A DNA stretch of 40,911 nucleotides from an uncultured Candidatus Saccharibacteria bacterium (GTDB lineage: Bacteria; Patescibacteriota; Minisyncoccia; 2-02-FULL-40-12; IGHO2-12-FULL-4): positions 1 to 40,911 of the forward strand of contig CAYZNJ010000002.1 in assembly GCA_964479745.1 (NCBI GenBank). The letters run 5' to 3'. This document shows, one piece after another, positions 3,396 through 39,606 of the stretch. Each line of letters opens with the position of its first letter. The stretch's first letter is position 1. Both the position numbers and the translations under genes were made by a program. The notes beneath the pieces are model-generated. The model was given only the letters and a program-made list of their open reading frames with translations. It made no database searches and was not told where the DNA came from.

Positions 3396-3413
3396 GACAT
3401 TTCAAAAAGCGCA

Positions 3414-3561
3414 GCAGATACAGCCCTTGAGGTCACTGTGAGCTCGCGGTTGGCTAGGTTGGAAGGAGTATAATGTTTCTTTAACTCCTTCCGCAACCCG
3501 AGCGAACAGTGAGTGAGCCTGCCGCTGGAGCAGGCGAAAGTACCGAAAGGGCTGTATCTGC
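3414..3561 (+). repeat. Structured intergenic element, copy A of a 3-member family (short version)
   Basis: 15-bp perfect closing stem GCAGATACAGCCCTT (3414-3428) / AAGGGCTGTATCTGC (3547-3561). Internal hairpins are GGAAGGAGT-loop-ACTCCTTCC (3461-3492) and CCTGC-CGCTGGA-GCAGG (3518-3534). The same loop and architecture occur in copies B and C with different stems. Confidence 0.75.
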
Positions 3562-3577
3562 GAAGCTTGAATAATGA

Positions 3578-9727: not shown

Positions 9728-10147
9728 ATGAGGAAAAACTACGGTTTCTGGCTCTTAGTTATTGTTTTTTTAGTAAATATAACTTTCGGATTGGGACTTG
9801 ATTGGTACAAGAAGTTCTGGTTCTTTGATGTAATTCTGCATTTTTTGGGCGGCTTGGGCGTGTATATCGTTGCCCGGGAATATTTTTCTAAAGACTTCAG
9901 GGAAAATTCTTGGATAAGATATTCCTTGCTCTTGGTTGGCATTGTTATGTTTGTTGGAGTTCTTTGGGAGTTCACAGAGTACAACATTAATATCGTCTGG
10001 AGAGCAAGGCTTCAAAACATACAAGTAATAGGCGATTTAGACGACACCATGAAGGACCTTGCTATGGATATGCTTGGCGGCATTATCGGAGCAATTTCAC
10101 ATTTTTTCTGGCATAGAAAGTCCCAAAAGACTCAAACTGTTTCTTAA
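9728..10147 (+). CDS. Small integral membrane protein (about 4 TM), hypothetical
   Basis: 139-aa ORF with ATG start 34 nt from the divergent ileS start. Hydrophobic segments are FWLLVIVFLVNITFGLGL, VILHFLGGLGVYIVA, LLLVGIVMFVGVLW and MLGGIIGAISHFF. Its 3' end overlaps the convergent argS by 51 nt. Confidence 0.6.
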   Translation: MRKNYGFWLLVIVFLVNITFGLGLDWYKKFWFFDVILHFLGGLGVYIVAREYFSKDFRENSWIRYSLLLVGIVMFVGVLWEFTEYNINIVWRARLQNIQVIGDLDDTMKDLAMDMLGGIIGAISHFFWHRKSQKTQTVS

Positions 10148-11707
10148 CACGATAACCGAAGCATAAACCAGCGTCAATCTGGTTTTTTCTTTTTCTTTTT
10201 CAGCGCCGATAACTTTTTGGCTCTCATAAAAACGGTTAACCTTACCGGCTAGATCCAAAATATAAGTCGCCAAATGATGAATCTGATAGTTTTGGCCTAT
10301 TTCCAGCAAAATTTCCGGAAATTTGATCAACTCCTTAACCAACTCCGCTTCTTCTTTTTCCCATGTCGCCTTTTTGGCGATCTTTTTTTCTATTTTAATT
10401 TTCAGCTCTTTGGCTTTCCTCAATATACTTTGCATACGGACAAAAGCATACTGGATATAATAAACGGGGTTTTTGTTTGACTCTTCTTTGGCCAAGTCCA
10501 AATCAAATTCAACATGGCTGTCCATTGATTTAGCCAAAAAGAAAAATTTGACCACATCTGATGGCACTTCTTTAACAAGTTCATCCAAAGTTATAAACCG
10601 GCCGGCCCTTTTGGACATCCTCACTTGCTCCCCTTTTTCCACCAAAGTAACCAGCTGGTAAAGCAAAAAGTTAAACTTTTCTTCGGACAACTTCATGGCT
10701 CTTAGGCCAGATTTTATTCTTGCCACATCTGCGTGATGGTCGGTGCCCAAAATATATATCATCTTATCAAAGCCTCTTTTTAATTTATTTTTAGCGTAAG
10801 CGAAGTCCGATAACAGATAGGTGGTAAAGCCATTTGATTTTTTAATAACCACATCGCTGTCCAAACCGAAGTTCGAAGCCTTGAACCACAAAGCCCCGTC
10901 TTTTTCGTAAGAAAGATTGTTGACTTTCAGATAGTACAGAACATCATCAAGTTCGCCGTGATTTTCCAGCTCGTTTTCCGGAAACCAAACATCGTGTTTA
11001 ACTCCGAAGAGCGCGAGAGAGTCTTTGAGAGAAGCGGTAATTTTTTCAACGGCGTATTTTTGGGCCGATTTAATCAAACTCTCAAAATCATCCAAAGAGC
11101 CATGATAAACTCCTTCTTTTTTTAAGTCTTTGGCAATTTCTAAAATATATTCTCCTTGATACATTTCTTCCGGATAATCCGTTTGCCGTCCGTTCAGCTC
11201 TAAAAATCTCCGAGCAACAGATTCTCCAAGCAAGGCCACTTGCCGGCCGAGGTCGTTTAAAAAATATTCTTTGATAACTTTGTGGCCAAGAAAGTTAAGA
11301 AGTCTGGCCAAACTTTCGCCGTAAGCCGCAGAACGGCCGTTGCCCAGCGTCAGCGGCCCGGTGGGGTTGGCTGAAACAAATTCAAGATTTATTTTTTTGC
11401 CTTTGCCATTTTTCGCTGAACCGTACTTTTCTCCCTTTTTTAAAACTTCCTGCAGTTCCTCATTTAAAACTTCTTCGCTTAAGTGAAAGTTAATAAAACC
11501 TGGCTTAACCAGTTCAATTTTGGAAAAAAGCCGGCTGAATTTTTTATCTTTCTTCAAGTCCGACAAAATTTCCTCGCCTACATCCATGGGGCTTGCTTTT
11601 TTCTCCTTTGCCAAAACCAGAGGCAAATTGCTTGAATAATCGCCAAATCCAGCCGGCGCGAAAGACACCTCCCCGCCCAATTTCTTTTTTATTTCTTCTT
11701 TAATCAC
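10097..11707 (-). CDS. argS: Arginine--tRNA ligase
   Basis: 536 aa. Motifs: SANPTGPLTLGNGR (HIGH region, non-canonical), MSKRAGRFITLDEL (KMSKS-equivalent MSTR-like) and a DALR-type anticodon domain YYIQYAFVRMQSIL ending in ..M, as is usual for ArgRS. Confidence 0.93.
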   Translation of the reverse strand: MIKEEIKKKLGGEVSFAPAGFGDYSSNLPLVLAKEKKASPMDVGEEILSDLKKDKKFSRLFSKIELVKPGFINFHLSEEVLNEELQEVLKKGEKYGSAKNGKGKKINLEFVSANPTGPLTLGNGRSAAYGESLARLLNFLGHKVIKEYFLNDLGRQVALLGESVARRFLELNGRQTDYPEEMYQGEYILEIAKDLKKEGVYHGSLDDFESLIKSAQKYAVEKITASLKDSLALFGVKHDVWFPENELENHGELDDVLYYLKVNNLSYEKDGALWFKASNFGLDSDVVIKKSNGFTTYLLSDFAYAKNKLKRGFDKMIYILGTDHHADVARIKSGLRAMKLSEEKFNFLLYQLVTLVEKGEQVRMSKRAGRFITLDELVKEVPSDVVKFFFLAKSMDSHVEFDLDLAKEESNKNPVYYIQYAFVRMQSILRKAKELKIKIEKKIAKKATWEKEEAELVKELIKFPEILLEIGQNYQIHHLATYILDLAGKVNRFYESQKVIGAEKEKEKTRLTLVYASVIVLRNSLSLLGLSMPEKM

Positions 11708-11761
11708 TTTAAAATCATAGCATTTTGCTTTTAATTTTGGAATATTCTAAAATTGAGTATG

Positions 11762-11974
11762 GAGTTTCGTGAATATTGCTTTTGGAGGCTCTGTGAGTTG
11801 TGGATTGCTAGCCATCGAACTTACAGCCCATTCGCCGTTAGGCGGATAAGCTGTAAGTCTGATGGCGTGGTCTGGACAGCTTTCTTAAGCTGAACAGAAT
11901 CCACATCTCACAAAGAGCGAGTCCCGCCGCTGGAGCGGGACGAGCGTCCGGAAAAAGCAATGTTCAACAAACTC
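11762..11974 (+). repeat. Structured intergenic element, copy B (213 nt), 15 nt upstream of the htrA start
   Basis: Closing arms GAGTTTCGTGAATATTGCTTTT / AAAAAGCAATGTTCAACAAACTC. Nested pairs: GCTCT-GTGAG..GTGGATT with AATCCAC..CTCAC-AA-AGAGC, and CATCGAACTTACAGC with GCTGTAAGTCTGATG. Side hairpins are CAGCTT-TCTT-AAGCTG (11877-11892) and GTCCCGC-CGCTGGA-GCGGGAC (11921-11941). Confidence 0.8.
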
Positions 11975-11989
11975 TACAACTAAACAAAT

Positions 11990-13051
11990 ATGCAATCAGA
12001 CGAAAAACAAACAATAGATATAGTCAAAAAAGTTACGCCGGCGGTGGTTAGCATCAGCGTCAGCAAGAATTTGTCTCAAATCAAGGAGTCGTCTTCCAGT
12101 CAACTTGGACCGGGCTTAAGCCCCTTTCTTTTTGACCAACCTGAAACGAAAGAACTCGGCAAGCCAGAAGACCAGAAAGTAAAAATCGGCGGCGGCTCGG
12201 GTTTTGTCGCTGACTCAAACGGCATAATTTTGACCAACAAACATGTTGTCATTGACCCCGACGCGGAATATGTCGTTATTACCAGCGACGAAAAAGAATA
12301 CGCCGCCAAAGTTTTAACTCGAGATCCGGTAAACGATATTGCTATATTAAAAATAGACGCCAAAGAACTGCCTGTGGCAAAACTCTCAAACTCAAAAATA
12401 GAGCCGGGACAGACAGTCTTGGCAATCGGCAACGCTCTCGGCCTTTTTTCAAATACTGTTTCAAAGGGCATCGTCTCGGGATTAGCACGTAAAATTTCGG
12501 CCGCCATGGGCAGTGAAGGCAACGAACAGCCGGAGGTTGAAGAATTAAGAGGCGTGATCCAAACCGATGTTGCCATCAATCAAGGCAATTCCGGCGGTCC
12601 GTTAATTAACACCGACGGCGAGGTTGTCGGTATAAACACAGCTGTAATTTTCGGCGCTCAAAACATCGGTTTTGCCATTCCGGTTCAGTGGGCTAAAAAA
12701 GATTTAGAAGATTTAATTAAATTCGGCAGAATCATCAGGCCATACATAGGCTTGCGTTACATAATGCTCAATAAAGATTTTCAGAAAAAATACAAGCTAC
12801 CCGTAGATTACGGCGCTTTGATTGTCCAGTCTCATGCCCCCGGCCCGGCCGTGGTTAAAAACTCCCCCGCCGACAAAGCCGGCCTCAAAGAGAATGACAT
12901 TGTCTTGGCAGTTAACAGTGAAAAGATTGACGAAAAGAAAGACCTGGCCGACATGATTCAACTTTTCAAGGCTGGCGATGAGGTCGAACTAACTTGCCTT
13001 CGTAAAGAAAAGGAACACAAAATGAAAGTATTGTTAGAAGAAAGAAAATAA
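11990..13051 (+). CDS. htrA: HtrA/DegP-family serine protease with C-terminal PDZ domain
   Basis: 353 aa. The catalytic triad contexts are TNKHVV, NDIAILKI and GNSGGPLIN. PDZ-like segment GALIVQ...SPADKAGLKENDIVLAVN. There is no N-terminal signal or TM segment, and an in-frame TAA lies at 11981-11983 upstream of the ATG. Confidence 0.9.
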   Translation: MQSDEKQTIDIVKKVTPAVVSISVSKNLSQIKESSSSQLGPGLSPFLFDQPETKELGKPEDQKVKIGGGSGFVADSNGIILTNKHVVIDPDAEYVVITSDEKEYAAKVLTRDPVNDIAILKIDAKELPVAKLSNSKIEPGQTVLAIGNALGLFSNTVSKGIVSGLARKISAAMGSEGNEQPEVEELRGVIQTDVAINQGNSGGPLINTDGEVVGINTAVIFGAQNIGFAIPVQWAKKDLEDLIKFGRIIRPYIGLRYIMLNKDFQKKYKLPVDYGALIVQSHAPGPAVVKNSPADKAGLKENDIVLAVNSEKIDEKKDLADMIQLFKAGDEVELTCLRKEKEHKMKVLLEERK

Positions 13052-13558: not shown

Positions 13559-14005
13559 ATGACATACGCGACTAATCCCAGAGCGCAATTTGATTACAAC
13601 ATTTTGGAAAAGCTGGAAGCCGGTTTAGTTTTGTCGGGACAAGAAGTAAAGTCAATCAAAAACGGCAAGGTTTCAATCCGAGGCGCTTTTGTAAAAATTT
13701 TAAATAACGAAGCATGGCTTATCAGCGCCGTAATTTCTCCTTACCAGCCCGGCAACACACCGCCGGATTACGACCCTCAACGCACCAGAAAACTTTTGCT
13801 GAAGAAAAAAGAGGTGAATTACCTCTTTGAAAAATCGCAGGAAGCGGGACTGGCTATCGTGCCGCTTAAGCTTTACGGAAAAAAGAATCTGGTTAAACTG
13901 GAAATCGGCCTCGCCCGCGGCAAAAAGAAATACGACAAGCGGGAAACAATCAAGAAACACGAAGAAGAAAAGAAAATTAGGCAAAAATTAAAAAACTACT
14001 TGTAA
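13559..14005 (+). CDS. smpB: SsrA-binding protein SmpB
   Basis: 148 aa. NPRAQFDYNILEKLEAGLVLSGQEVKSIK.GKVSIRGAFV, ..YDPQRTRKLLLKKKE.. and a basic C-terminal tail are typical of SmpB. The tmRNA gene lies about 1.1 kb downstream. Confidence 0.93.
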   Translation: MTYATNPRAQFDYNILEKLEAGLVLSGQEVKSIKNGKVSIRGAFVKILNNEAWLISAVISPYQPGNTPPDYDPQRTRKLLLKKKEVNYLFEKSQEAGLAIVPLKLYGKKNLVKLEIGLARGKKKYDKRETIKKHEEEKKIRQKLKNYL

Positions 14006-15155: not shown

Positions 15156-15503
15156 GGGCTCGAAAGGCTTCGATAGAGATAAAGTTCATTTAGAGGCAAG
15201 GGAAGGATGGCTATCACCTTCTAAAACTTTAGCCAAAACAAGAAGTGCCAATCAAAATTACGCACTCGCTTACGCTTAATATAGCTTAGGCCGTTTTGCC
15301 CTCAATTCTCACTAGAGGGACAAGGCGTCATCAGTGAGATATATTGTCGGCCCTCGGCTTCGCGGACCGCCAAAGAAACTAACCGAAGCGATCGTTTGGT
15401 TATTTTGCCTGTTCTTACCCAAATGATTAAAAAAATGGGATAACCTTGTAGTCTCTGACTGGCTTAATTTCTAGACGGGATTTCAATATCCCCGAGTCCA
15501 CCA
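15156..15503 (+). ncRNA. ssrA: tmRNA (transfer-messenger RNA), 348 nt, CCA encoded
   Basis: 5' GGGCTCG pairs with 3' CGAGTCC, including the G3-U pair used as the Ala identity element, followed by A-CCA (ends at 15503). GGCTTCGA lies near the 5' end and a T-arm-like GGGAT-TTCAAT-ATCCC before the acceptor 3' strand. The internal tag reading frame is GCC AAT CAA AAT TAC GCA CTC GCT TAC GCT TAA (15247-15279), giving ANQNYALAYA. Confidence 0.9.
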
Positions 15504-15563: not shown

Positions 15564-17897
15564 TTATTGGACCACCAGGTTGAATCTTACTGAGTTACCA
15601 CTGTCGTCTTCAAGAATAAGATATTGAAGGCCCCGATCGGCAGACGGAGAAACAGAAAGCCCGAACTTGATTTTGACTTTGTCACCCGAAAAAGGAGTAG
15701 TGGAAATAGTATCGGCGTTAATATCCAAGTCGCCAGATTCGGAAGTAACGCTTAAAACATCGCTTAAATTAGTCCCGTAAACTGTAACCGTGTAATTTTT
15801 ACCGGGTCTTAATACCAAAGGCACAGCGTAGTAAATAGTCGGATCGGAAGCAGAATTTACAATGCTTAGCAAGCGGGAAGAGTAACCGGAAACTCTGCCG
15901 GCGCGGGTAACACAACCGCCGCTAACCACCTGCAAGTAATAAGAACCGTTTTCAATATTCGGAGCTTCAAATCGCAAAGTCTTGGCAGAAAAGTCGCTTG
16001 TTGTGACTGTTTCTCCGCCAATCAATACTTCGGCACTCCGTATAGACGCGCCCATGCCGGACCCGCAGTTGCCGGCGCTGAAGTTAGAACCCTTAACAGT
16101 TACTGTGTCGCCCGGAGCGGCAACAAGCGGAGAAAAGGAAGAAATTTTGGGAGTGGGAATGTTGACAGGAGGCAAAGTGGTGGTGGTAACGGGCGGCAAG
16201 GTGGTGGTCGTGGTGGCGGGAGTAGTGCCGGCGATATTTAAAGAAGCGGAAAGATCAACAAAGCTGCCGGAAAGAGAAAAAGTTTTGGTGGTTTTGTAAG
16301 CGCCTTTTTCATAGCGTACAACCAAGTTAGAGAAATAACGGCCCAGGTTATCGGGAAAGACCAGCGTTCGATTGCCGTTGGTGGCGCTGACGGCACCGGA
16401 CGGAGACAGACCATTCAGATAATTGATGAATTCGCCGTCAAAAACAATTTCCCCGTTGCTGGCCGAAGTGCCGATCTTAAGATTGCCCTTACCGGGACGA
16501 TATATGTAATCCGTGATTGCCGCCAACGCGTTACTAATGAAGTTAAAACCTGATCGAGTGTCCGGCGATTTAAAGCTATTCGGCAAAGGCGGTAGATGTT
16601 CACTGTCAATCTGGCAGTTTTGCGCTCCATCGGGACATTCGCAACGGTTATTGTAACCGAGACGCGGATCTAAAAAAGTATTTTCAGTCCCATTCCAAGA
16701 GCAAGCGTAACTAGCCGCGCCTTCCAAACCAAAAAAGAAAAATTCGCTGGTTTGGCTGCCCCAAGTTGTATAGCCAACATCGGAGACAGCGGTAGGCGGA
16801 GCCGCCATGTCAATAAAGAAAACTTGGGCGCTAGGATCATATTGCACCGCGTAAGAACCGGCGCTGCCAAGATAAACTATCATTGCCGTACACCAGCCGC
16901 TATTGGCGCCCCCCAAAACCACCCGGCCATTGCGCGGCAAAGGAGAAGACCAAGGACCAGTACCAGGCCAAGCTTGGCAAGCGCCGGCATTGCCTCCGGT
17001 GGTATTGGCAGTCGTCGGACGCGTTACGCTATCGTTATATAACTGTACGCCGTTGATAGGATTGCCGTTGCGGTCGGTTACCCGACCGGAAAGGGTGGTG
17101 CCACTGGTATAAGTCGGACGGCCGACATTGTCGCTTACAGTAACAATTATCGTCCGCTCGCCCCTCCAAACTATCTGATTGCGTGTGTCATAATTTACAA
17201 GTAAAGATTTAATAGTATATTTTCCCGGCTGTTGGGTGGTAAGCTGATGAGTATGTTCAGCTCCGCGCTGCCAGTTAGCCACCACGATATCCGAACCGTC
17301 GTTAAAAGTGTAAACAGCCCCAAAAGTAGCCGCGTCTAAATTACCTGTACCAGTGATGGCAGAATGGAAACTGCCGCCCTGTGGCACTGTGGCAGGATCA
17401 AAAGTAATGTCCGAAACAGTAATCGGCTCTGGCGTGATGGCGTTTAAACTATAATCAGAACCGTTGGAAATGTTGCCGCCGGGCAGAAAAGGGATTGACC
17501 CGCCAGCCGCTCCTCCACCCTGCCGCAGACAGACTGCGTATTGCTGTTGAGTGGGGGCGTCCGGATCACCGGCATAGGGTTCTCGGCAGTAACGCCCGTC
17601 GCTTGTACGCGTGTAGCCGGCTGTCGGACCGTTTTGACCCGTCACGCCTAAACTCCAACATTGCAAGAAATGCCGGCAACGGTCCTGTTGGGAAGACAAG
17701 TTGGTGTTGCAATCTTGTCCGGCTGGCCGCCAGTTAGACGGCAGGTCGCTGCAAATGGGAGAAGGATCAGAAACCGGTTCGACTGCCAAGCTAAGATTAA
17801 AACCGCTTTGGCTCAAATCTACTTTCACATACTGCAATGTTACTATGCTAGCCGCAACCACGACCAAAAAGACGAACAATGGCAAAAGTTTTGACAT
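15564..17897 (-). CDS. Large secreted or cell-surface protein: Cys-rich N-terminal region, Thr/Pro linker, C-terminal IPT/TIG-like repeats
   Basis: 777 aa. Signal/anchor LLPLFVFLVVVAASIVTL. Linker TTPATTTTTLPPVTTTTLPPVNIPTP. It is followed by PKISSFSPLVAAPGDTVTVKGSNFS and DPTIYYAVPLVLRPGKNYTVTVYGTNLS, both IPT/TIG-like strands. GC is visibly higher than in neighbouring genes (hand count 33/60 at 16741-16800). Confidence 0.8.
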   Translation of the reverse strand: MSKLLPLFVFLVVVAASIVTLQYVKVDLSQSGFNLSLAVEPVSDPSPICSDLPSNWRPAGQDCNTNLSSQQDRCRHFLQCWSLGVTGQNGPTAGYTRTSDGRYCREPYAGDPDAPTQQQYAVCLRQGGGAAGGSIPFLPGGNISNGSDYSLNAITPEPITVSDITFDPATVPQGGSFHSAITGTGNLDAATFGAVYTFNDGSDIVVANWQRGAEHTHQLTTQQPGKYTIKSLLVNYDTRNQIVWRGERTIIVTVSDNVGRPTYTSGTTLSGRVTDRNGNPINGVQLYNDSVTRPTTANTTGGNAGACQAWPGTGPWSSPLPRNGRVVLGGANSGWCTAMIVYLGSAGSYAVQYDPSAQVFFIDMAAPPTAVSDVGYTTWGSQTSEFFFFGLEGAASYACSWNGTENTFLDPRLGYNNRCECPDGAQNCQIDSEHLPPLPNSFKSPDTRSGFNFISNALAAITDYIYRPGKGNLKIGTSASNGEIVFDGEFINYLNGLSPSGAVSATNGNRTLVFPDNLGRYFSNLVVRYEKGAYKTTKTFSLSGSFVDLSASLNIAGTTPATTTTTLPPVTTTTLPPVNIPTPKISSFSPLVAAPGDTVTVKGSNFSAGNCGSGMGASIRSAEVLIGGETVTTSDFSAKTLRFEAPNIENGSYYLQVVSGGCVTRAGRVSGYSSRLLSIVNSASDPTIYYAVPLVLRPGKNYTVTVYGTNLSDVLSVTSESGDLDINADTISTTPFSGDKVKIKFGLSVSPSADRGLQYLILEDDSGNSVRFNLVVQ

Positions 17898-19470: not shown

Positions 19471-19662
19471 ATGAAACTAAAAACAAACAAATCGGCTTCA
19501 AAGAGATTTAAGATCGGCAAGAAAAAAATAATGCACCGAACAGGCCACCAGAATCACTTTAACGCCAAAGAGTCCGGCGAAGAAACTCGGAGCAAACGAG
19601 GCTACAGAACTCTTAGTTCGGCTGAAGATAAAAACATAAGAAAGATACTGCCCTATGCCTAG
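19471..19662 (+). CDS. rpmI: 50S ribosomal protein L35
   Basis: 63 aa. MKLKTNKSASKRFKIGKKKIMHRTGHQNH is the typical L35 pattern, and the gene has the conserved infC-rpmI-rplT order. Confidence 0.92.
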   Translation: MKLKTNKSASKRFKIGKKKIMHRTGHQNHFNAKESGEETRSKRGYRTLSSAEDKNIRKILPYA

Positions 19663-19999
19663 AGTAAAAAGAGGAAAAACTGCAAACAAAAGAAGGAAAA
19701 ATTTGCTGAAGCACGCAAAGGGTTTTATGTGGACCCGAAGCACCAAATATCGCCAAGCCAAGGAAGCTCTTTTGCACGCCTGGTCTTTCCAGTTTGCCGA
19801 CCGCAAAAAAAAGAAAAGCAATTTCCGCCGCTTGTGGCAAATAAAAATAAACGCCGGCGCCAGAGAAAACGGTTTATCTTACAGCCAGCTTATTAACAAG
19901 CTCAAAAAAGCTAACATAGAACTGGATAGAAAAATCCTTTCCGACCTCGCCCATCACGAACCGGAAGTATTTAAAAAAATAGTTGAGTCACTAAGATGA
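19655..19999 (+). CDS. rplT: 50S ribosomal protein L20
   Basis: 114 aa. MPRVKRGKTANKRRKNLLKHAKGF...RRLWQIKINAGARENGLSYSQLINKLKKANIELDRKILSDLA is typical L20. It overlaps rpmI by 8 nt. Confidence 0.95.
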   Translation: MPRVKRGKTANKRRKNLLKHAKGFMWTRSTKYRQAKEALLHAWSFQFADRKKKKSNFRRLWQIKINAGARENGLSYSQLINKLKKANIELDRKILSDLAHHEPEVFKKIVESLR

Positions 20000-20028
20000 C
20001 GAAATACTGAGCACAGTAGTGCGAATGT
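20000..20028 (+). repeat. 29-nt hairpin motif, copy E1 (directly after the rplT stop codon)
   Basis: CGAAATACTGA-GCAC-AGTA-GTGC-GAATGT. Copies E2 and E3 lie in the opposite orientation. Confidence 0.7.
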
Positions 20029-20054
20029 GTAGTCTGAACGTATTGAAACAGCTC

Positions 20055-20089
20055 AAAAATAAAATCCTCTTTCAAGAGGATTTTATTTT
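20055..20089 (+). terminator. Rho-independent terminator of the infC-rpmI-rplT operon
   Basis: AAAATAAAATCCTCT-TTCA-AGAGGATTTTATTTT. Confidence 0.8.
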
Positions 20090-20308
20090 AGCAGAGTATT
20101 TTTGAAATAGTTCGAACCCATTTTGGCCAGAAATCTGAAAAATCTGTCTGAAAATCTGAACCGCAATTCTGAATCAGACAATTTCAAGTTTTTCTTTGGC
20201 GGAGTTCGGATTATTGAAATTCTAACGAATTTCAGTCTTGGCGGCAAATTCTTTGAAAAATAAAAGCGGCTTGATATTATCGCACCGCTGATGATCAACT
20301 GTATCAGG

Positions 20309-20758
20309 TTAAACCTGACTTCGTAGGCAATCGACAATCCTTATAAGACGCCTGCTATACGGAAAGCAAAGGCCAATGATCCTTGGTTCAAGACTCTCAA
20401 ACCAAAGCAGGGTAAAACTGTTTTCTGGCATGATCCGGAGATACCACTCATACATAAGGATACGCCAGGAAAAACCATCTTTGTTCTGAATGCTGATTTC
20501 AAATGAATCAGCAAAGAAACCGCCAGCAGGATGATAGTCAAGAAGCTGATAATCTCGTGCGGAAACTTTTGCCATCAACATGTCGAGAACTTCTCTCTGC
20601 TGCCTCCGAGGCATTCTTATGGATCGCCGCTTTGATGCTTCTTTCTGCCACTCCAAATAGGAAGCGGCCCATTCAGCTGATCCACCAAGTGCTGATATCG
20701 CCTGACTTGCGGTGACTCCTATCGGTCCGACCGGTTCAACAAAAGCATTGTTATTCAT
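20309..20758 (-). CDS. Hypothetical protein (149 aa) inside a GC-richer island
   Basis: Longest ORF in the rplT/tRNA-Glu interval. It has an ATG start and no recognisable motifs. Local GC is higher than in neighbours (hand count 32/60 at 20581-20640). Confidence 0.45.
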   Translation of the reverse strand: MNNNAFVEPVGPIGVTASQAISALGGSAEWAASYLEWQKEASKRRSIRMPRRQQREVLDMLMAKVSARDYQLLDYHPAGGFFADSFEISIQNKDGFSWRILMYEWYLRIMPENSFTLLWFESLEPRIIGLCFPYSRRLIRIVDCLRSQV

Positions 20759-20882
20759 CTGACCCCCATCCTTTTCAAGGAAACTGATGTGGCCAGCATT
20801 TGAGCTGACTCCACATCTCTTGGTAGATGATAATAAGTCTTCATTGATATGTCAAGGGAGCGTAACAAAAAACCAGCATTTT

Positions 20883-20911
20883 ACATTCGCAGTACTCTGC
20901 TCAGTATTTCG
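20883..20911 (-). repeat. 29-nt hairpin motif, copy E2
   Basis: The minus strand reads CGAAATACTGA-GCAG-AGTA-CTGC-GAATGT, i.e. E1 with a compensatory C:G to G:C swap in the stem. It sits inside a larger stem AAAAACCAGC (20868-20877) / GCTGGTTTTT (20931-20940). Confidence 0.7.
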
Positions 20912-21043
20912 GAATCTAAGTTCCTCAACTGCTGGTTTTTGAGGTAAAGTTTTCCCCGCCCCTTGCCGTGCTCCGCCGTAGCCTTGGCGTAGGCGAGGTC
21001 CCTCCAAAAAAGATGTTTTAGGAAAACTTGAAAAAACGAAGAG

Positions 21044-21090: not shown

Positions 21091-21162
21091 CAGCGCCAGA
21101 GGGAGTCGAACCCTCCTTGCAAGATTGAAAATCTTGAGTCCTAACCGATAGACGATGGCGCC
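21091..21162 (-). tRNA. tRNA-Glu(UUC): tRNA-Glu, anticodon UUC
   Basis: Hand-folded cloverleaf: acceptor GGCGCCA/TGGCGCT (G1-U72 wobble), D-arm GTCT..GGAC, anticodon stem CAAGA/TCTTG with loop TT-TTC-AA, 4-nt variable loop, T-arm GAGGG-TTCGACT-CCCTC. CCA is not encoded. Confidence 0.85.
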
Positions 21163-31549: not shown

Positions 31550-32168
31550 TTTGTTTTTTATTTTTAAGCCAGCGAAATAGAAAAACCAATGCAACTACAA
31601 TCAATAAACCCAGCAAGTTAGTAAGTGAAAATATTCTGCTAAGTAAGGTTGGCGGGGTTGGCTTAGGAGTTATAGTTGTAGTCGGCGCAACTTTGCAGTC
31701 GTTGGGACAATTCTGGTTGTTTTCTCCTGTGTCTGAATTACAAATTCCATCTTCGTTGCAAACCGGTCCGCCGGGAGCCAGATCTATCTCCAAAAGTTTG
31801 ACATTGTCCGGGTTGTAGAAATTTGCTGTTTTGGCATTGGCAAAATATGGAGCTTCAACAGTTACCTTGCCAGTCTTGGGATAGAATTCAAAGTCCGCCA
31901 AAACCGCGCCCCGCACCGACAAAATTTCTCCTTTATAAACCGGGGTTCCCGACTCCGGTTTATCGTACTCTTTGGCTATTAAGTCAAAGGGGAATGAAAA
32001 ATCACGGTCTTTAATTAACTTACTCTGCTGGTCAAGGTAAAGATGAAAAGAATAAGTAAAGCCGGCATCCTGAAATCCAACACTGTCTGACAAAGAGTTG
32101 CCAACCAAACCGAAAACTCCCAGAAAAATTATAAAAAAAGCCGAGATTACATTTTTTTTGAAAGTCAT
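31524..32168 (-). CDS. Secreted protein with small Cys-knot-like motif, Thr/Pro linker and C-terminal TM anchor
   Basis: 214 aa with signal AFFIIFLGVFGLVGNSLS. Motif GGPVCNEDGICNSDTGENNQNCPNDC. Linker APTTTITPKPTPPT. Anchor LLGLLIVVALVFLF followed by basic RWLKNKKQ. The ATG lies 1 nt after the upstream stop. Confidence 0.7.
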   Translation of the reverse strand: MTFKKNVISAFFIIFLGVFGLVGNSLSDSVGFQDAGFTYSFHLYLDQQSKLIKDRDFSFPFDLIAKEYDKPESGTPVYKGEILSVRGAVLADFEFYPKTGKVTVEAPYFANAKTANFYNPDNVKLLEIDLAPGGPVCNEDGICNSDTGENNQNCPNDCKVAPTTTITPKPTPPTLLSRIFSLTNLLGLLIVVALVFLFRWLKNKKQNVALPPQI

Positions 32169-32169
32169 A

Positions 32170-33510
32170 TTAAAATCCCAGGTTATTCAAACAATAATTT
32201 ATATAGGTCGCTCCTTGTTTGGTTTCATACATTCCAGTGTTACAAACTGTGTGTTGGGGGTTGTCGTAAGGACATTCCCATCTCTTTTTCGTTCCGCCAC
32301 CGCAGCTTTGCTCACTTGCACAGTCACTGCTAGCCGCACAGTTGCCCGGACCAGCATTATATCCGGCGTAAATATTGCGCGGTTCCGATCCGCAAGTACC
32401 AGCCGCCAGTGATCTGATAAACGCGGCTCCGATACAGATGCTTTTATCGGCATTTGCAGGATTAGTAAGCCAAGAAGAAGTAATATTCTCTGTTACGCCG
32501 CAAGCCGACTTAAACATATTAGCAGTTTCCGGACGAAGCTGCATCAGCCCGTAAGAAGAAGATGTGCCCGCTCTGATATTACAGTCCGATTCAATAACCA
32601 TAAAAGCCTTGAGAACCGTCGCTGAAGCGGCGCCTCCGGCGTAACGATTTATTGAAGCTGAATATTGTGAACAAGAGGAGTTGCCACAGCCACCAGGTCT
32701 TCTTTGTCCGTTGCAAAGATTAAAAGTGCTGTAATTAGTTCCCTGAAACATACAAGCCAAAGTTCCAAGCGTAGTAGTCGTGGTGGGTCTTACAGTTGTT
32801 GTGGTTGTTGAGGGTTTTGTAGTCGTGGTAGTAGTTGGCGGCTTGGTTGTGGTCGTAGAAGCTGGAGACAAAGTCGTGGTAGTAGAACCCGGCCGGGCAG
32901 TCGTTGTGGTCGTACCGGGTCTGACGGTAGTTGTGGTTGAACCGCCACGAACGGTTGTTGTAGTAGAACTGGGTTGAGTAGTTGTCGTAGAAGAAGTAGT
33001 TGTGGAACCTGATGCCATGGTGGTTGAGGTAGTTGTTTCGCTTGTCTCCGTCGTTGTTGTCGTAGTTTCAGTTGTTGTGGTGGTGGCCACCGAAACAACT
33101 TCTTTACATTCAAGTTTCCACCAATCTTCGGCAACGTTCTGGTCGCCGGCGATGGTGCGCAAAGTTGTGTTGACTATCAGCCAAGCCAGAAAAATTATCA
33201 TCAGACCGTAAGCGGTCGTCCGAAAAATATTCTGCCCGGCTTGAACTCGCGAAGGTATTCCCCCGCCCAGCAAAATAGAAAATCCGGCGTAAATGAAAAA
33301 CAAAGCCGCCAGCGCCGGCACCAGATAAAACAAAACAAAATCGCTGATATTTTTCCCCAAAACCAAAAGGTCGCAAGTGGTGCAAGCCGGCTGTCCGGTC
33401 CTGCCGCAAGGCACGAGAGGATCAAGAGCCAAGGCGTTAGTAGCCCAAACGGAAAAAAGGGTTAGAGTCAGAAGAAAAACTAAAAATAATTTGTTGCGTA
33501 TTATATGCAT
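32170..33510 (-). CDS. Pilin module, ~110-aa poly-Thr linker, C-terminal GH23/SLT-type lytic transglycosylase domain
   Basis: 446 aa with signal LFLVFLLTLTLFSVWATNALA. Module: LVPCGRTGQPACTTCDLL...LVPALAALFFIYAGFSILLGGGIPSRVQAGQNIFRTTAYGLMIIFLAWLIV. Linker: ATTTTTETTTTTTE...TTTTTKPSTTTTTVRPTTTT. SLT motifs: VIESDCN (Glu-Ser), YGLMQL, AGYNAGPG. Confidence 0.8.
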   Translation of the reverse strand: MHIIRNKLFLVFLLTLTLFSVWATNALALDPLVPCGRTGQPACTTCDLLVLGKNISDFVLFYLVPALAALFFIYAGFSILLGGGIPSRVQAGQNIFRTTAYGLMIIFLAWLIVNTTLRTIAGDQNVAEDWWKLECKEVVSVATTTTTETTTTTTETSETTTSTTMASGSTTTSSTTTTQPSSTTTTVRGGSTTTTVRPGTTTTTARPGSTTTTLSPASTTTTKPPTTTTTTKPSTTTTTVRPTTTTTLGTLACMFQGTNYSTFNLCNGQRRPGGCGNSSCSQYSASINRYAGGAASATVLKAFMVIESDCNIRAGTSSSYGLMQLRPETANMFKSACGVTENITSSWLTNPANADKSICIGAAFIRSLAAGTCGSEPRNIYAGYNAGPGNCAASSDCASEQSCGGGTKKRWECPYDNPQHTVCNTGMYETKQGATYINYCLNNLGF

Positions 33511-33536
33511 TTTAAAAAATTTCTACGCATCAACTT

Positions 33537-33751
33537 AAGCTTCGCCAACACTGCTTTTTACGGACGCTCGCTTTTTTCCAGCGAAAAAGCTCGCTCTTTG
33601 CGGTCTGTGGATTTGGAAAGAGTAAGAAAATTATACTCTTTCCAACCAGCTCGTCTTGTTTTTATCTTATTCGCAGACGAATGGGCTAAAAACAAGACTC
33701 GCGAGCAATCCACAGCCCGCAGAGCCTTCAAAAGCAGTGTCGGCTATGCTT
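33537..33751 (-). repeat. Structured intergenic element, copy C (215 nt), sense-oriented 26 nt upstream of the pilin-operon start
   Basis: Read on the minus strand it aligns with copy B. TGCTTTTGAAGGCTCTGCGGGCTGTGGATTGCT matches 29 of 33 positions. AGCCCATTCG and AATCCACAGACCGCAAAGAGCGAG are shared, as are the hairpin GCTTTTT-CGCTGGA-AAAAAGC (33570-33590) and GAGCGTCCGTAAAAAGCAGTG. The hairpin GGAAAGAGTA-loop-TACTCTTTCC (33615-33643) matches copy A. Confidence 0.8.
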
Positions 33752-33776
33752 GATTTGGAATGTTGGTAATAATTTA

Positions 33777-35099
33777 TTACCGCCGCTGCATCAAAAGCGT
33801 AATTTTATTTTCGGCTGTCCGCAGAGCTTCAGGAATTGACTCGCGCGCAAAATTAACATCTTCAATCATATCCGCCAAAATATTTTCAATAACTAAACTG
33901 TCAACTTGATACCAAGACTTCGCGCTAAGCGCCTGCTTTGCAAAAACTCCCAAATCCAGATCATCTTTCTGCTGGTCTATGAGATCGCGCCTAGCTGTCG
34001 GCCTGTTGGCAGAGTTAAGATAAGGTATTACTCCCTCAACAGAACTAAGGTAAACCAAAAACTCCCAAGCTTGCTGACTGACCGGAGAAAATTTAGAAAC
34101 TGTCGGCGCCCAGTAGTTGGCATAGCTTGTTGACTGCCCCGGCTCCAGTTGCGGCATAGGAGCAACGGCAAAATTAAGTCTCGGAGCTTTTGACCGCAAT
34201 AAAGCCGTCTGATGAGAATAGTTAAACATCATGGCCGTAGCGCCTTCTTGAAAAGCGTCTATTGAATAGTGCAAGCCGTCGTTCCATGTGTAAACTCTCT
34301 TACTTGGATTGGCAAAGTCGGTATAATATTGCAGGGCTACTTGGCCTAGATCTTTGCCGTCAACAATTTTAGAAAAATCAGCGCCGGTGTGGACATCGTC
34401 AACCATCGGTACGCCGCTTTGCATCATCAAAAGAGACAAGATATCGGTTGAGCGGTTGATGTTTCTGGCTGTGCCGATAGCCGCACCGGAGCGGGATATG
34501 TTGCTATTTGAATCAGCGATAGTAATTTTCTCCACATCTTCATTAAATTCTTGCCAAGTTTGCGGCGGACGGGTAATGCCCAAATTGTTGAAAATATCTT
34601 TGTTATAATAGAGAGCCAGAGAATCAACATAAATCGGCAAAGCGTAAATATCGTTGCCAACCACTAAATCTTTTTCAGCCACATCCACAAACTGGTCACG
34701 GAAATCTTTAAGAGTAAAGAGAGGTATTTTTTGGTCGGGAATCTGCTGGGGCAAAGGAGCGATTTTGTCCTGATACTTCGCCAGCCAGTTATTTTGAATC
34801 ATAAAAATATCCGGTCCTTTGCCGGAGGCGAAAGCGTTGATTAAAGCTTTCTCGTAGTCCTCGTAACTGAACTGACGGTAAGTAATACTTACTTGGGGAT
34901 TTTTTGCCTGATAACCGCTGATGCTTTGCCGAAAAGTGTCGGTACCGTCAAAAACACCCCAAAACTGGAGTTGGGCCGGTTGTCCGCCGCCACCGCTCGG
35001 ACCAAAACCGCGGCTTAAAAAAATTATTGTTACCAAAACCAAAGTAGCAATAACTAAGCCCCCGGCAATTAGAACAAGTTTATTTTGAGATAAGTCCAT
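33777..35099 (-). CDS. Extracellular solute-binding protein (ABC-type, family 1, sugar-type), orphan
   Basis: 440 aa with N-terminal anchor LVLIAGGLVIATLVLVTIIFL. LQFWGVFDGTD...YRQFSYEDYEKALINAFASGKGPDIFMIQNNWLAKY is the typical SBP_bac_1 opening. No permease or ATPase gene is adjacent. Confidence 0.75.
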   Translation of the reverse strand: MDLSQNKLVLIAGGLVIATLVLVTIIFLSRGFGPSGGGGQPAQLQFWGVFDGTDTFRQSISGYQAKNPQVSITYRQFSYEDYEKALINAFASGKGPDIFMIQNNWLAKYQDKIAPLPQQIPDQKIPLFTLKDFRDQFVDVAEKDLVVGNDIYALPIYVDSLALYYNKDIFNNLGITRPPQTWQEFNEDVEKITIADSNSNISRSGAAIGTARNINRSTDILSLLMMQSGVPMVDDVHTGADFSKIVDGKDLGQVALQYYTDFANPSKRVYTWNDGLHYSIDAFQEGATAMMFNYSHQTALLRSKAPRLNFAVAPMPQLEPGQSTSYANYWAPTVSKFSPVSQQAWEFLVYLSSVEGVIPYLNSANRPTARRDLIDQQKDDLDLGVFAKQALSAKSWYQVDSLVIENILADMIEDVNFARESIPEALRTAENKITLLMQRR

Positions 35100-35754: not shown

Positions 35755-38700
35755 TTAGACCACCACAACCGAAGCTACCGAGTCGCCGGGAGCGAGTTTC
35801 ATAATGCGAACGCCTTGAGTCGCCCGACCCAAAACAGAGATGCTATCCAATGAAGTTTTTATCACTTGGCCTTTTTGAGAAACCGCGATTATTTCTTTGC
35901 CTTCCGGATTTACAATATGCGCCGAGATAATCTGGCCGGTTTTGGCAGTAATTTTTGCCGTCATAATTCCCCTGCCGCCGCGATGCTGGACCTTGTAAAA
36001 TCTCAACTCGGTTCTTTTGCCGTAGCCTTTGTCCATAACCACCAATAACTTTAAGTCTTTTTCCGGAATTTCTGCCGAAACGGCTTCCATGCCGACAACT
36101 TTGGCTTCCTTTTCCAACCGAACGCCGATTACTCCAGAAGCCGCCCGCCCCATCGGCCTGACATCGCTTTCTTTAAATCTGATTGAGTTGCCGTCGGAAG
36201 TAGCTAAAACAATTTCGTCTTTACCCGAAGTGCTTCTGACCCATTTTAATTCGTCGTCTTTTTTAAGTTTGATGGCAATCAAGCCGTTGGTTCTGACTTT
36301 TTCAAAGTCAGACATGGCAACTTTTTTAACAACCCCGTTTTTGGTCGCCATGAAAAGATACATGCCTTTGCTTTGCTTGGGAATCGGCACAACTCCGGTA
36401 ACCAACTCAGTCGGTGAAATATTTAAAAAGTTGACGATTGCTTTGCCCTTTGACTGCCGGCTTGATTCCGGCACTTCGTAGCCTTTTGTCTGAAAAGCCC
36501 GTCCGGAATTGGTGAAAAATAAAATGTTGTCATGGGTATTAGCCATAAAAAATTGGCTAACAATGTCTTCCTCTTTTGTCTCCATGCCAATCAATCCTTT
36601 GCCGCCTCTTTTCTGGATTTTTAAATTCTCCGGCGCCATGCGCTTGATATAGCCGCTTTGGGTAACCATAAACAAACTGTCTTCTTCCGGCATCAGCTCT
36701 TCTTCGCCAACTTCCCTCAAAGCCGATTTCACAACTTTGGTTTTCCTCTCATCGCCGTATTTGGCTTTGAGTTGGATAAACTCTTCTTTGATAACGCCTA
36801 AAATCTTTTTGGGATGGGCCAGCAGATCCTCAAGATAAGCAATCAGGGTCTTTTTTTCTTTCAGCTCATCTTCCACTTTTTTTCTTTCCAAACCGGCCAA
36901 AGCCCGCAGTTTCATTTCCAAAATTGCCGTCGCCTGCCTTTCAGTAAAGCTGAATTTTTTCATCAGGTTTTTTAGAGCTTCCTCTTGCGAAGCTGACGCT
37001 CTGATGAGTTTGATAATGGCATCAATATGGTCAAGGGCCTCCTTTAAGCCCTCCAAGATGTGCGCTCTGTCTTTGGCTTTGCCAAGCTCAAATTGAGTGC
37101 GCCTGATAACCACATTTCGGCGATGTTCAAGAAACTTTTCCAGCGCCATTTTCAAACTTAAAGTCTGTGGCTGAATGCCGTCAACCAAAGCCAGCATGTT
37201 AACATGAAAGGTTTTCTGCAATTCGGTGTATTTAAAAAGCTGGTTAAGTATTTTTTTAGGAAAAGCATCTTGTTTTAAGTCAACCACAACCCTGATGCCG
37301 TCCTTGTCGGATTCATCACGCACGTCTTTGATGCCGTCGATTTTTTTCTCCTTGCCCGTCGCCAATTCAGCAATTTTTTGTATCAGCTCTGCTTTGTTCA
37401 CCTGATAAGGAATTTCGGTAACCACAATTTGGAAACCTTTCTTACCTTCTACTATCTCGGCTTTGGCGCGCATAATTATCGGCCCCTTGCCGCTGGCGTA
37501 GGTGTTAATAATATCTCTTTCATTGTAAATCGTGCCACCAGTGGGAAAGTCGGGACCTTTGATGAATTGCGACAACTCGGCAACATCGGCATCGGGACGG
37601 TCTATCATATAAACAAGGCCGTCTAAAACTTCGGACAAGTTATGCGGGGGGATGTTGGTTGCCATACCGACGGCAATCCCCATTGAGCCGTTGATCAAAA
37701 GATTGGGCACAACCGAAGGCAGAACCACCGGCTCTTTCCTACTGCCGTCATAATTATCAACAAAGTCAACCGTCTCTTTGTCTAAGTCGGCCAGTAAGCC
37801 CTCGGCTACACTAGATAAACGGGCTTCCGTATATCTCTGCGCGGCAGCCGGGTCGGAATCTAAACTTCCAAAATTCCCTTGTCCGTCTATCAACGGATAG
37901 CGAAGTGAAAAATCTTGGGCCATTCTGACCATAGAGTCGTAAATCGCCGCATCTCCATGCGGATGATATTTACCCATGCAATTGTGTGCAACAATACCGT
38001 TAGCCAAGAACTCATGGTCACCCTCAACTTCAATGTCGTATGTTGTTTCCGGTTTAGCATTTTCTATTTTTTCCACGTAAAGAAATCTTATATCGTTATT
38101 CGTCAGTTCATCTATAAGTCCGGAAAGAGGAGAATTAATTTTTTTTAGCTTCTCGGCAATATAAAGTTCGGTTATTTGACGAAGTCGCAAAGGTTTTTCT
38201 TGCAAATCAGATGAGTACCTTAACTTTGCGCCAGTATGATACTTGATTCCCATTCTAAATTTGCTGCCGTCCATTCCTGAATACCAACCGCCGCCAAGAT
38301 GCTGTTTTGAAAGCTCTGAAAAGATAAGTTGCCCTCCGTAAGGCAAAATGCCCCAACTAGACCAATGCCTGTAAATATTCTCTGCCTTTATCCTTTCCAG
38401 CCGATTTTGTTTATAAGTTGAAAAAAGTTTTAGTTCTTTGGCTAATTTTTGGACCTCATCTCCTCTTATCTCAAGCACTTTCCCAAAAGTATTGGCTTTA
38501 ACCGTACGTCCATTAACCATAGAAGGAGTCGTTTTTTTGTAAGTATATTTTTTGCTAAAAATACCGAGGTATTGGAGAAGTACTTGCAACTGGTTGATGA
38601 GTTTCTCCGACGAAGAAGCGTAGTTGATCACTGCTCTGTTTTTAGCCACACTTCCATCCCCGTCCAATAAACCGGAAATAAAAGCGAAGATAACACTTCG

Positions 38701-39606
38701 CGGAGCTTGAAAAATTTTGTCAGGTATAAATTTGCTGAAAGCTTTAAAACTAAGCGGTATAGAAAACTCGTTAATAAGATAATCACAAATTTCTTTTCTG
38801 TTAATTCTCAAAACATACACAATACTTAGAGACTTTCTGCCGTCTTTTAATCTTATCTCGGAACTTCTAGTTTCTATTGTTGGCACATAACCAAACTCGT
38901 GCTTAAAACATTGTTGGACTTTTGCGACTATGGGCTGCTCGCTGGACACAAAGCCAAGCCTCCTGCTTTTTCTTGAACCATAGTCAGCAGTAATCCAGCC
39001 GTCGGAAATGAGCATACCGAGAATATAGCCCAGTTCTTCGCTAAATTTTTTCTTCTTTCCTTTATAAAACGAGAGTTGAACACCGACTCTGTCAGGATAT
39101 TTAGATCTGATAGTCAGCCAGTCGCCCGCATTTAAATTTTTTGCTTCTTTCCACTGAAACTCTCCTTTGTTTGTAAAAACTTTAAATTTTTGTGAAGAAG
39201 TGGCCGTAACTGACAGGCCATTTGAAAGAGTGATTTTATTTAAAGGCTTGGGTGGCATAACAAATAGGTTTGCGACCCTTCTTATTTTATTTTGAGTATA
39301 AACTCTATCGCCTTTTTTTATATCCTTTATACGCTTAATGCCTTTCGAAGTAAGAACAAGGGTATTTTCCTCAAAACATTCGCCGACGATTCTGGCAGAC
39401 TTTACAAATTTTACGTTATGCCGAAGCCCCATTTCGTTCATCGCATACAAAATCCTCCGGTGAACCGGTTTGAGACCGTCTCTGACATCGGGCAAAGCGC
39501 GAGAAACGATAACGCTCATCGCATAAGCTAAATAAGAATCGCGCATCTCCTCGGTAATTTCCCGAGACTCAATATTGCTTTGTTTTGGTTTATTTTTTTC
39601 TTCCAC
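35755..39606 (-). CDS. gyrA: DNA gyrase subunit A, interrupted by an intein (817-aa extein plus 466-aa intein)
   Basis: Extein motifs: [34 protein letters not shown], (C)[50 protein letters not shown] (catalytic Tyr), [14 protein letters not shown], plus C-terminal beta-pinwheel repeats. Confidence 0.95.
37981..39378 (-). mobile_element. Full-length intein with LAGLIDADG homing-endonuclease domain in gyrA
   Basis: It starts with Cys77 (TGT, 39378-39376) after ..ARIVGE and ends ..GIVAHN (AAT, 37983-37981), followed by the +1 Cys of [10 protein letters not shown]. 1398 nt = 466 codons, in frame. Endonuclease motifs are [14 protein letters not shown] and [12 protein letters not shown]. Block F/G: [21 protein letters not shown]. 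Confidence 0.9.

Follow-up and report, generated by a model that had tools for sequence, protein, structure and literature searches.

What is a folded, non-coding sequence of ~215 nt doing between two genes of the same strand, and does it serve the gene downstream? The sequence, here called copy C, lies on the minus strand of a 40,911-nt stretch of DNA from an uncultured Candidatus Saccharibacteria bacterium (contig CAYZNJ010000002.1 of assembly GCA_964479745.1, positions 1 to 40,911; the window), between genes for an extracellular solute-binding protein (SBP) and for a protein with pilin and lytic transglycosylase domains. Similar sequences, copies A and B, are found elsewhere in the window. 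An initial annotation proposed that C could be a cis-acting leader. The reading favored here, with moderate confidence, is that C belongs to a dispersed, non-autonomous repeat family whose spread or persistence depends on the fold of one strand. Copies have been gained, lost, truncated, and replaced among relatives, in either orientation and beside unrelated genes. The family is structured and covarying, occurs in many copies in two phyla, has no link to any gene class, is present at some orthologous junctions and absent from others, and has an asymmetry of wobble pairs between the strands.

Copy C and its surroundings

The element, its flanking genes, and its parts are as follows. All are on the minus strand, and helices are numbered P1 to P6.

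33537–33751, minus: copy C, from first to last closing-stem base (covariance model match 33530–33760, 268.8 bits; fold; helix coordinates)
33777–35099, minus: gene 5' of C, SBP (Pfam SBP_bac_1, E = 4e-33)
32170–33510, minus: gene 3' of C, T4SS-type pilin domain and SLT lytic transglycosylase domain (Pfam PF18895, PF01464)
33730–33751, minus: closing stem P1, 5' arm AAGCATAGCCGACACTGCTTTT, pairing with 33537–33558
33537–33558, minus: closing stem P1, 3' arm AAAAGCAGTGTTGGCGAAGCTT, pairing with 33730–33751
33717–33725, minus: P2, 5' strand GCTCTGCGG, with its partner CCGCAAAGAGC at 33593–33603
33606–33714, minus: P3, TGTGGATT / AATCCACA, around hairpins P4 and P5
33653–33698, minus: P4, optional long hairpin inside P3, with conserved apical AGCCCATTCG...CGAATAAG
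33615–33643, minus: P5, hairpin inside P3
33562–33596, minus: core hairpin P6, conserved feet and loop, GAGCGAG-CTTTTT-CGCTGGA-AAAAAG-CGAGCGTCC

The ends assigned to C in the initial annotation, on the strand of both flanking genes, match those of the closing stem exactly. On the minus strand the spacer has a predicted minimum free energy of -105.7 kcal/mol (z = -8.8), equaled by none of 200 shuffles; the opposite strand folds with about equal stability, as for a near-palindrome. Repeat finding ties the spacer to 11777–11964 on the plus strand. The closing stem ends 26 nt before the ATG at 33510. A scan around C found no terminator-like or better-than-chance promoter-like site between the SBP and pilin/SLT genes, and C is therefore probably co-transcribed with these neighbors. 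The operon transcript carrying C that had been envisaged also looks likely from one of the related loci (numbered with an L; here L105, SBP 75% identical), where 7 nt separate the SBP stop from the next start and there is no element.

The window as a whole contains three full copies and one mini derivative:

11760–11976, plus: copy B, between ArgRS (10097–11707, minus) and htrA (11990–13051, plus); covariance model match 11753–11981, 248 bits; fold z = -12.2
11727–11755, plus: promoter-like TTGCTT-17 nt-TAAAAT directly 5' of B, read by eye and not reported by the scan tool
3407–3568, plus: copy A, without P4; covariance model match 3400–3575, 80.9 bits, E = 7.9e-22; fold z = -10.2
8989–9077, plus: mini hairpin, a core-less palindrome like the closing stem; covariance model match 26.6 bits; fold z = -5.8

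Copies B and C are 79% identical, with 17 compensatory pairs in which both sides have changed. B has the same orientation to htrA as C has to the pilin/SLT gene, its closing stem ending 13 nt before the ATG at 11990; two sense copies do therefore lie close to start codons of envelope-related genes, as first noted. That C is the longest-stemmed copy does not hold: the equivalent arm has 7+9+7 pairs in B versus 2+12+5 in C, and B, at -120.4 kcal/mol, has the more stable fold. In the stem originally quoted for C, GAGTCTTGTTTTTAGC / ATAAAAACAAGACGAG, the central 12 nt (GTCTTGTTTTTA / TAAAAACAAGAC) pair in register, but the rest of the 16-mers does not. The TTGCTT-17-TAAAAT motif is conserved in L111 and in the element-free L109; since it lies directly upstream, B plausibly forms the 5' end of the htrA mRNA, if the motif acts as a promoter.

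Copy A, recovered by a covariance model built from B and C, is antisense to both its neighbors, a class II tRNA synthetase gene (2082–3395, minus) and a DUF11 protein gene (3578–5353, minus), and occupies the whole 182-nt spacer between them. The mini hairpin (~89 nt) lies in frame within a class I tRNA-synthetase open reading frame (ORF; 6130–9693, minus strand) without interrupting translation. It encodes roughly ...LTSASASFLGRTCRRPASKEVLAPVQ..., directly before a conserved WTTTPWTLPGN motif, and by eye is ~85% similar to an intergenic copy at L016:1592–1678.

Architecture and covariation

On the modeled strand, the element consists of P1 (~22 bp), a GG...CC clamp, P2 with a conserved GCUCU/AGAGC opening, and P3 (GUGGAUU/AAUCCAC), which encloses the hairpin P5 and the optional P4, the latter with a conserved internal loop AGCCCAUUCG...CGAAUAAG. 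The helices are joined at a multi-helix junction. P6 has near-invariant feet and loop (GAGCGAG-stem-CGCUGGA-stem-CGAGCGUCC), the feet being able to form tandem G-A pairs; it is the most conserved module of the family, although its apparent conservation is inflated, copies having been ascertained by a P6 pattern. P4 is missing in copy A and in short copies of the Omnitrophota type.

In an alignment of 87 sequences, 93.7% of pair cells hold standard pairs, as against 40–45% with the partners slid; both sides have changed in 49 of 62 pairs, and 500 shuffles all fall short of the observed values. The closing stem is homologous among copies yet fast-evolving, with double changes in all 18 scored pairs; in the P6 stem they are found in seven of eight. 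As far as sequence comparison goes, covariation beyond phylogenetic and positional controls shows a structured element, in a way that would suit RNA and single-stranded DNA equally. Template switching during replication can likewise produce paired changes in palindromes, but would not yield the bias of G-U over A-C described below. An origin of the closing stems from target DNA was ruled out, the stems of different copies being homologous to each other.

There are two main size classes. Long copies (215–240 nt) are found on AT-richer Patescibacteria contigs; their arms, including those of C, are complementary within a copy and differ between copies through compensatory changes. Short copies (130–170 nt), without P4 and often without P5, are found on GC-richer contigs of the Omnitrophota type, and have conserved terminal inverted repeats (AAAATTTTTCG...GGAATGTGATGTGGCGA and complement) ~25–30 nt past the model. 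Core-less or minimal derivatives were found at L048, L012:243, and L074:10436. There is also a diverged subfamily II, with loop CGYUGGG and motif GGTCGTTGACAAACC, at L104:4815–5000, L107:4821–4995, L053:~4800–4990, L049:2521–2720, and in the flanks of L064:1100–1331. In L064, a copy of the first family is nested in the apical loop of a subfamily II element.

Distribution and copy number

The P6 pattern, scanned against one genome per species, identified 22 loci in Candidatus Yanofskybacteria, Paceibacterota, Nealsonbacteria, a metagenome-assembled genome (MAG) labeled Saccharibacteria, and three Omnitrophota MAGs (taxon labels are those of the MAG records, and the copies are phylogenetically non-independent). 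A metagenome scan with the same pattern added 81 loci. The covariance model found 34 matches in the genome loci and 87 in the metagenome loci, for more than 100 copies overall. Single pattern matches in Ktedonobacter and in a virus were not confirmed by the model; the former is attributed to chance, and viral carriage was set aside.

Two or three copies can occur inside a single 8-kb locus, and one Yanofskybacteria MAG has at least eight matches. The 830-kb contig Ga0082335_1000010 has three copies that are ~94% alike and share sharply defined ends. At least ten contigs terminate within a copy, as expected of a repeat that breaks assemblies. Best protein matches place the window itself near Yanofskybacteria; an exact lookup of its SBP protein returned no entry on record.

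Orthologous junctions

The block comprising GyrA, a methyltransferase, SBP, and the pilin module is syntenic in relatives. At the junction occupied by C, L105 is element-free (above), and L104 and L107 have a subfamily II copy with its modeled strand opposite to the genes. The ArgRS–htrA junction occupied by B varies similarly:

Window: HtrA 100% identical, gap 282 nt, copy B, sense to htrA
L112: HtrA 88%, contig starts inside the copy, orthologous copy sense to htrA
L109 and L110: HtrA 85%, gap 139 nt, no element
L111: HtrA 78%, gap 494 nt, two copies back to back
L113 and L114: HtrA 70%, gap 62 nt, no element

In L109, L110, L113, and L114, htrA does without an element. The two L111 copies (2025–2497) occupy a divergent spacer with their 5' ends 37 nt apart, the shared promoter-like TTGCTT-17-TAAAAT lying within these 37 nt, and each copy stops 4–19 nt short of a start codon. 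At other loci, L003 has a copy at a site that is empty in L002, and of the full copy found in L022 only a right arm remains in L006. The family consists, then, of many dispersed non-coding copies with insertion polymorphism.

Orientation and gene context

Orientation was scored for 75 copies with ORFs on both sides. ORFs were called by a simple script of our own, and so crudely, with elements masked and identical copies counted once.

41 of 75 copies: antisense to both neighbors (like A)
19 of 75: sense to both neighbors (like C)
11 of 75: between divergent genes (like B)
4 of 75: between convergent genes

The 41 to 19 split in favor of antisense is significant by a binomial test (p = 0.006), and the downstream gene is on the same strand for only 30 copies, against 45 with it on the other. 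The preference for 5' leader positions that the initial annotation led one to expect is thus absent from the family. So is a preference for envelope genes, the neighbors being diverse housekeeping genes. Downstream of the 30 sense copies are genes for tRNA synthetases, alanine racemase, KsgA, thymidylate kinase, a DNA polymerase III subunit (DnaX), YchF, BioY, and MotA/ExbB, among others; other neighbors include NDK and sugar-nucleotide enzymes. The 79 neighbors of antisense copies contain 137 Pfam families, none in more than three proteins. An enrichment of tRNA synthetases, suggested by the window and by the genes downstream of sense copies, was not sustained (two of the 79 neighbors). Neither coherent sense placement nor conservation at an orthologous position, as would be looked for in a cis-regulatory leader or riboswitch, was found.

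Placement is polar as well. In 62 of the 75 copies the gap to the neighboring ORF is larger on the 5' than on the 3' side of the element (p ~1e-7); in antisense copies a stop codon lies near the 3' end (median distance 1 nt), and in sense copies a start codon does (18 nt). In 13 of the 41 copies antisense to both neighbors, 5 nt or less separate the 5' end from the neighbor's start codon. Full-length copies were found only between ORFs.

Strand asymmetry and conservation in place

Within helices of the modeled strand, G-U pairs are about three times as common as A-C mismatches (99:38 and 55:10 in the two alignments), and an alignment-free, ungapped count of the closing stems gives 27:7. The ratio is 44:15 in copies antisense to both neighbors, 29:9 in sense copies, and 15:3 in those between divergent genes. 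The modeled strand also folds better than the other in 68 of 78 copies. As the excess of G-U is found in every class, the fold is preserved on one strand even where that strand is absent from the local mRNA; for the copies antisense to both neighbors, selection on a single-stranded intermediate fits better than selection on local mRNA.

Conservation in place varies. L012 and L039 have copies 87% identical between flanks 78–80% identical, with compensatory changes in a closing stem peculiar to these copies. Copy B and its L112 counterpart are similar where alignable, with P5 swapped; identity between B and the plus-strand copy of L111 is only 54%, less than for htrA itself (71.5%). The orthologous copies in L004 and L017 differ at four positions in ~205 nt (~98% identical), between flanks ~80–85% identical.

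Known families

At the gathering threshold, Rfam 15 finds only the tmRNA and two tRNAs in the whole window. Permissive scans of C and B returned only chance matches to miRNA and snoRNA models (12–20 bits), and a scan of ten related loci gave none. The repeats therefore match no Rfam family, whether riboswitch, leader, small RNA, ribozyme, signal recognition particle (SRP) RNA, 6S RNA, or RNase P. Set beside the consensus sequences of hammerhead, twister, group II domain 5, SRP domain IV, RNase P CR-I, T-box, and K-turn, the core appears to fit none; these comparisons serve as leads rather than tests. Literature searches found no account of such a repeat or RNA from Patescibacteria or Omnitrophota.

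SRP RNA was considered because three short-type copies lie just 5' of dnaX. It was rejected on the number of copies, an inverted case in L024, and the lack of an Rfam match. In L065, L075, and L050, a non-coding stretch (83–95% conserved) is found ~220 nt upstream of the short-type copy and dnaX, a position that in other bacteria often holds the SRP RNA gene; in L075 it has no Rfam match.

Possible origin and alternative explanations

On the favored reading, C arose by lineage-specific insertion into a spacer of a few nucleotides inside an SBP-to-pilin operon. The transcript would then form a ~215-nt intercistronic hairpin, which might incidentally affect how the pilin cistron is processed or translated, or how stable it is. 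Spread would be by way of a single-stranded intermediate, DNA or RNA, of the modeled strand (minus for C), presumably helped by a factor encoded elsewhere.

Several observations weigh against the repeat-family reading. Conservation well above that of the flanks, as in L004 and L017, should not occur in neutral junk. The two phyla share invariant nucleotides at the junction and in the loop, an agreement for which the scan pattern is partly responsible. The abutment of the 3' end on an ORF boundary in 62 of 75 copies, whatever their orientation, is not predicted by a repeat model, and the long-type closing stems vary by compensatory change, unlike conserved terminal repeats. Across 687 kb of loci, the copies are not accompanied by a transposase, a reverse transcriptase, or any other recurrent gene: clustering of ~650 locus ORFs and Pfam scans of 109 neighbors gave no recurrent or transposase-like neighbor, and no related autonomous element or transposase with matching ends was seen among the same ORFs. 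Target-site duplications were not detected, flanking direct repeats being no longer than in a control pairing the flanks of different copies; this comparison used ends set by folding alone, and a duplication of 2–3 bp would escape it. Finally, no insertion or excision is documented at nucleotide resolution, because the closest occupied and empty pairs are 10–25% diverged, too much to fix the ends of the element to the nucleotide. Simple junk DNA, in sum, fits the wobble bias, the conservation in place, and the 3' ends at ORF boundaries poorly. Classical miniature inverted-repeat transposable elements are likewise argued against by the absence of duplications above control, arms that in the long type are compensatory rather than conserved, and the lack of a linked transposase.

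There is some room, though we would not bet on it, for a new class of structured nucleic acid of fixed single-strand polarity in ultra-small Patescibacteria and in Omnitrophota. It could be a multi-copy non-coding RNA or RNA–protein particle, or else a mobile element of a new kind that recognizes and copies itself through a complex fold (an invariant three-way junction, tandem G-A feet, and a CGCUGGA loop) but has no terminal repeats, no target duplication, and no linked transposase.

A more specific proposal, and an unlikely one on present evidence, is that each element is a gene, transcribed from the modeled strand, whose product is a structured non-coding RNA of a new class. This RNA would act in trans or belong to an RNA–protein particle, and would bind a conserved partner through its invariant junction and CGCUGGA loop. 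A multi-helix architecture with invariant single-stranded and junction nucleotides in both Patescibacteria and Omnitrophota would suit such a gene, even if the scan pattern enforces part of the apparent conservation; so would the very strong covariation, the excess of G-U on the better-folding strand (68 of 78) whatever the orientation of the neighbors, and the near-identity of the L004 and L017 copies between more diverged flanks. The additional free DNA on the 5' side (62 of 75) is as expected of an upstream promoter, but no positional -10/-35 peak was found upstream of the copies in either orientation, and 13 of the 41 copies antisense to both neighbors leave no room for one. The 5' gaps have no conserved extension of the element, sharing only orthology and ordinary terminators. 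The number of copies in very small genomes, the frequently empty orthologous sites, and the truncated and nested copies all speak against such genes.

Somewhat less probable again is domestication of the repeat as a generic intergenic module, a hairpin at an ORF boundary that protects mRNA ends or insulates transcription units; C would then set the ratio of SBP to pilin expression. Such a role has been proposed for REP, BIME, and ERIC. Co-transcription and altered mRNA stability have been reported for ERIC and Correia elements (PMC3184786). The placement of 3' ends by stop or start codons is in keeping with this, as are the start of B at the predicted htrA transcription start, the back-to-back L111 copies ending just before their start codons, and the conservation of some orthologous copies in place. 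Protection of RNA ends works in either direction, however, and leaves a fixed polarity and a G-U bias on the non-mRNA strand unexplained. Nor is there a consistent run of T after the closing stem, in either orientation, as an intrinsic terminator would have; promoter and terminator scans around C and B were at chance level, and the same junctions work element-free in relatives.

A dedicated cis-acting 5' leader for envelope-related genes (the pilin module and htrA) is very improbable: the sense placement of B and C, 13 and 26 nt upstream of their start codons, and plausible co-transcription stand from the original proposal, as does the ending of sense copies near start codons, but the dedicated role does not, contradicted as it already is by the orientation and gene-class statistics (in 45 of 75 copies the gene downstream is on the other strand, and 41, A included, are antisense to both neighbors; no envelope bias downstream of sense copies), by orthologous SBP–pilin and ArgRS–htrA junctions without the element or with an inverted copy, and by the lack of any match to a riboswitch or leader family.

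Other features of the window

A degenerate direct repeat with a three-base GTN period (e.g., GTCGTGGTAGTAGTGG) occurs at 9–109, 16177–16211, 31651–31685, and 32771–33081; nine of its 13 copies are within the pilin/SLT gene adjoining C, which suggests a low-complexity region common to several surface proteins. The GyrA gene (35755–39606) has an intein carrying a LAGLIDADG homing-endonuclease domain; the intein domains are present in L107 too, and absent from the L105 GyrA (821 amino acids). At 19981–20930, 48-nt inverted repeats (85% complementary) surround a ~850-bp segment between rplT (19655–19999) and a tRNA gene (21091–21162); its ORFs of 149 and 84 amino acids have no Pfam match, and it may be a small mobile insertion. 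The smpB and tmRNA genes (13559–14005 and 15156–15503) are 1.1 kb apart, the latter a full-length Rfam match (123 bits).

Significance

Bacteria of the candidate phyla radiation have tiny genomes, in which few repeats and little regulatory RNA are usually expected. Here, an element of 130–240 nt takes up a sizeable share of the intergenic DNA (three copies in 41 kb), and is shared with Omnitrophota. It breaks assemblies of these genomes, and may mark horizontal exchange between ultra-small bacteria of shared habitats. Its place against start and stop codons could affect expression of the housekeeping genes concerned. The lesson for annotation is that a single genome window is too little ground for calling such an element a leader or riboswitch. 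The wobble bias, conservation in place, and polarity toward ORF boundaries make the family a good candidate for a search for a partner protein.

Comparison with known systems

In behavior, the closest known systems are bcr1, ERIC/Correia, and REPIN. Rickettsia palindromic elements also offer a parallel, as palindromic repeats of reduced genomes that insert in frame into protein-coding genes as well (PMC3184786). The mini derivative at 8989–9077, in frame inside a tRNA-synthetase ORF, is comparable; unlike the Rickettsia elements, full-length copies of this family are only between ORFs, and there is no sequence similarity.

The REP/REPIN-RAYT system (Y1 HUH) and elements derived from IS200/IS605 are recognized by structure, make no target duplication, and are active as one single strand. 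REP sequences bear short conserved tags (PMC3733652). The tags are at the hairpin feet, with a GTAG or CGTC head, and REPs are paired as inverted doublets. P6, with its fixed feet, resembles a recognition hairpin of this kind, the CGTC inside its 3' foot being the only likeness to a tag. The unit here is nonetheless 130–240 nt and multi-helix, in contrast to the GC-rich REP of 20–40 nt and the simple doublets of REPIN; no RAYT or TnpA gene was seen in the element loci, and a mostly antisense orientation is not a simple prediction of a lagging-strand-template model.

ERIC and Correia/NEMIS are hairpin-forming intergenic repeats of 100–160 bp that are often co-transcribed; their effect on mRNA stability depends on orientation, and some contain promoters (PMC3184786). 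The conserved terminal inverted repeats of the short Omnitrophota-type copies are shared with these. ERIC and Correia elements differ in having conserved terminal repeats, TA duplications, and a simple hairpin; the long-type closing stems, that of C included, vary freely with compensation, and neither duplication nor cognate transposase was found in the loci examined.

The bcr1 repeat of the Bacillus cereus group (~155 bp) is interspersed, non-coding, and non-autonomous, with a distribution not conserved between relatives; it is transcribed with its neighbors, and compensatory changes maintain a cruciform-like RNA structure (PMC3184786). It occurs only in a single species group, between 5-bp direct repeats, whereas the family described here spans two phyla, shows no duplication above control, and is larger (up to 240 nt), with invariant nucleotides at a multi-helix junction. 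Like bcr1, it is multi-copy, heavily covarying, and present or absent at orthologous sites.

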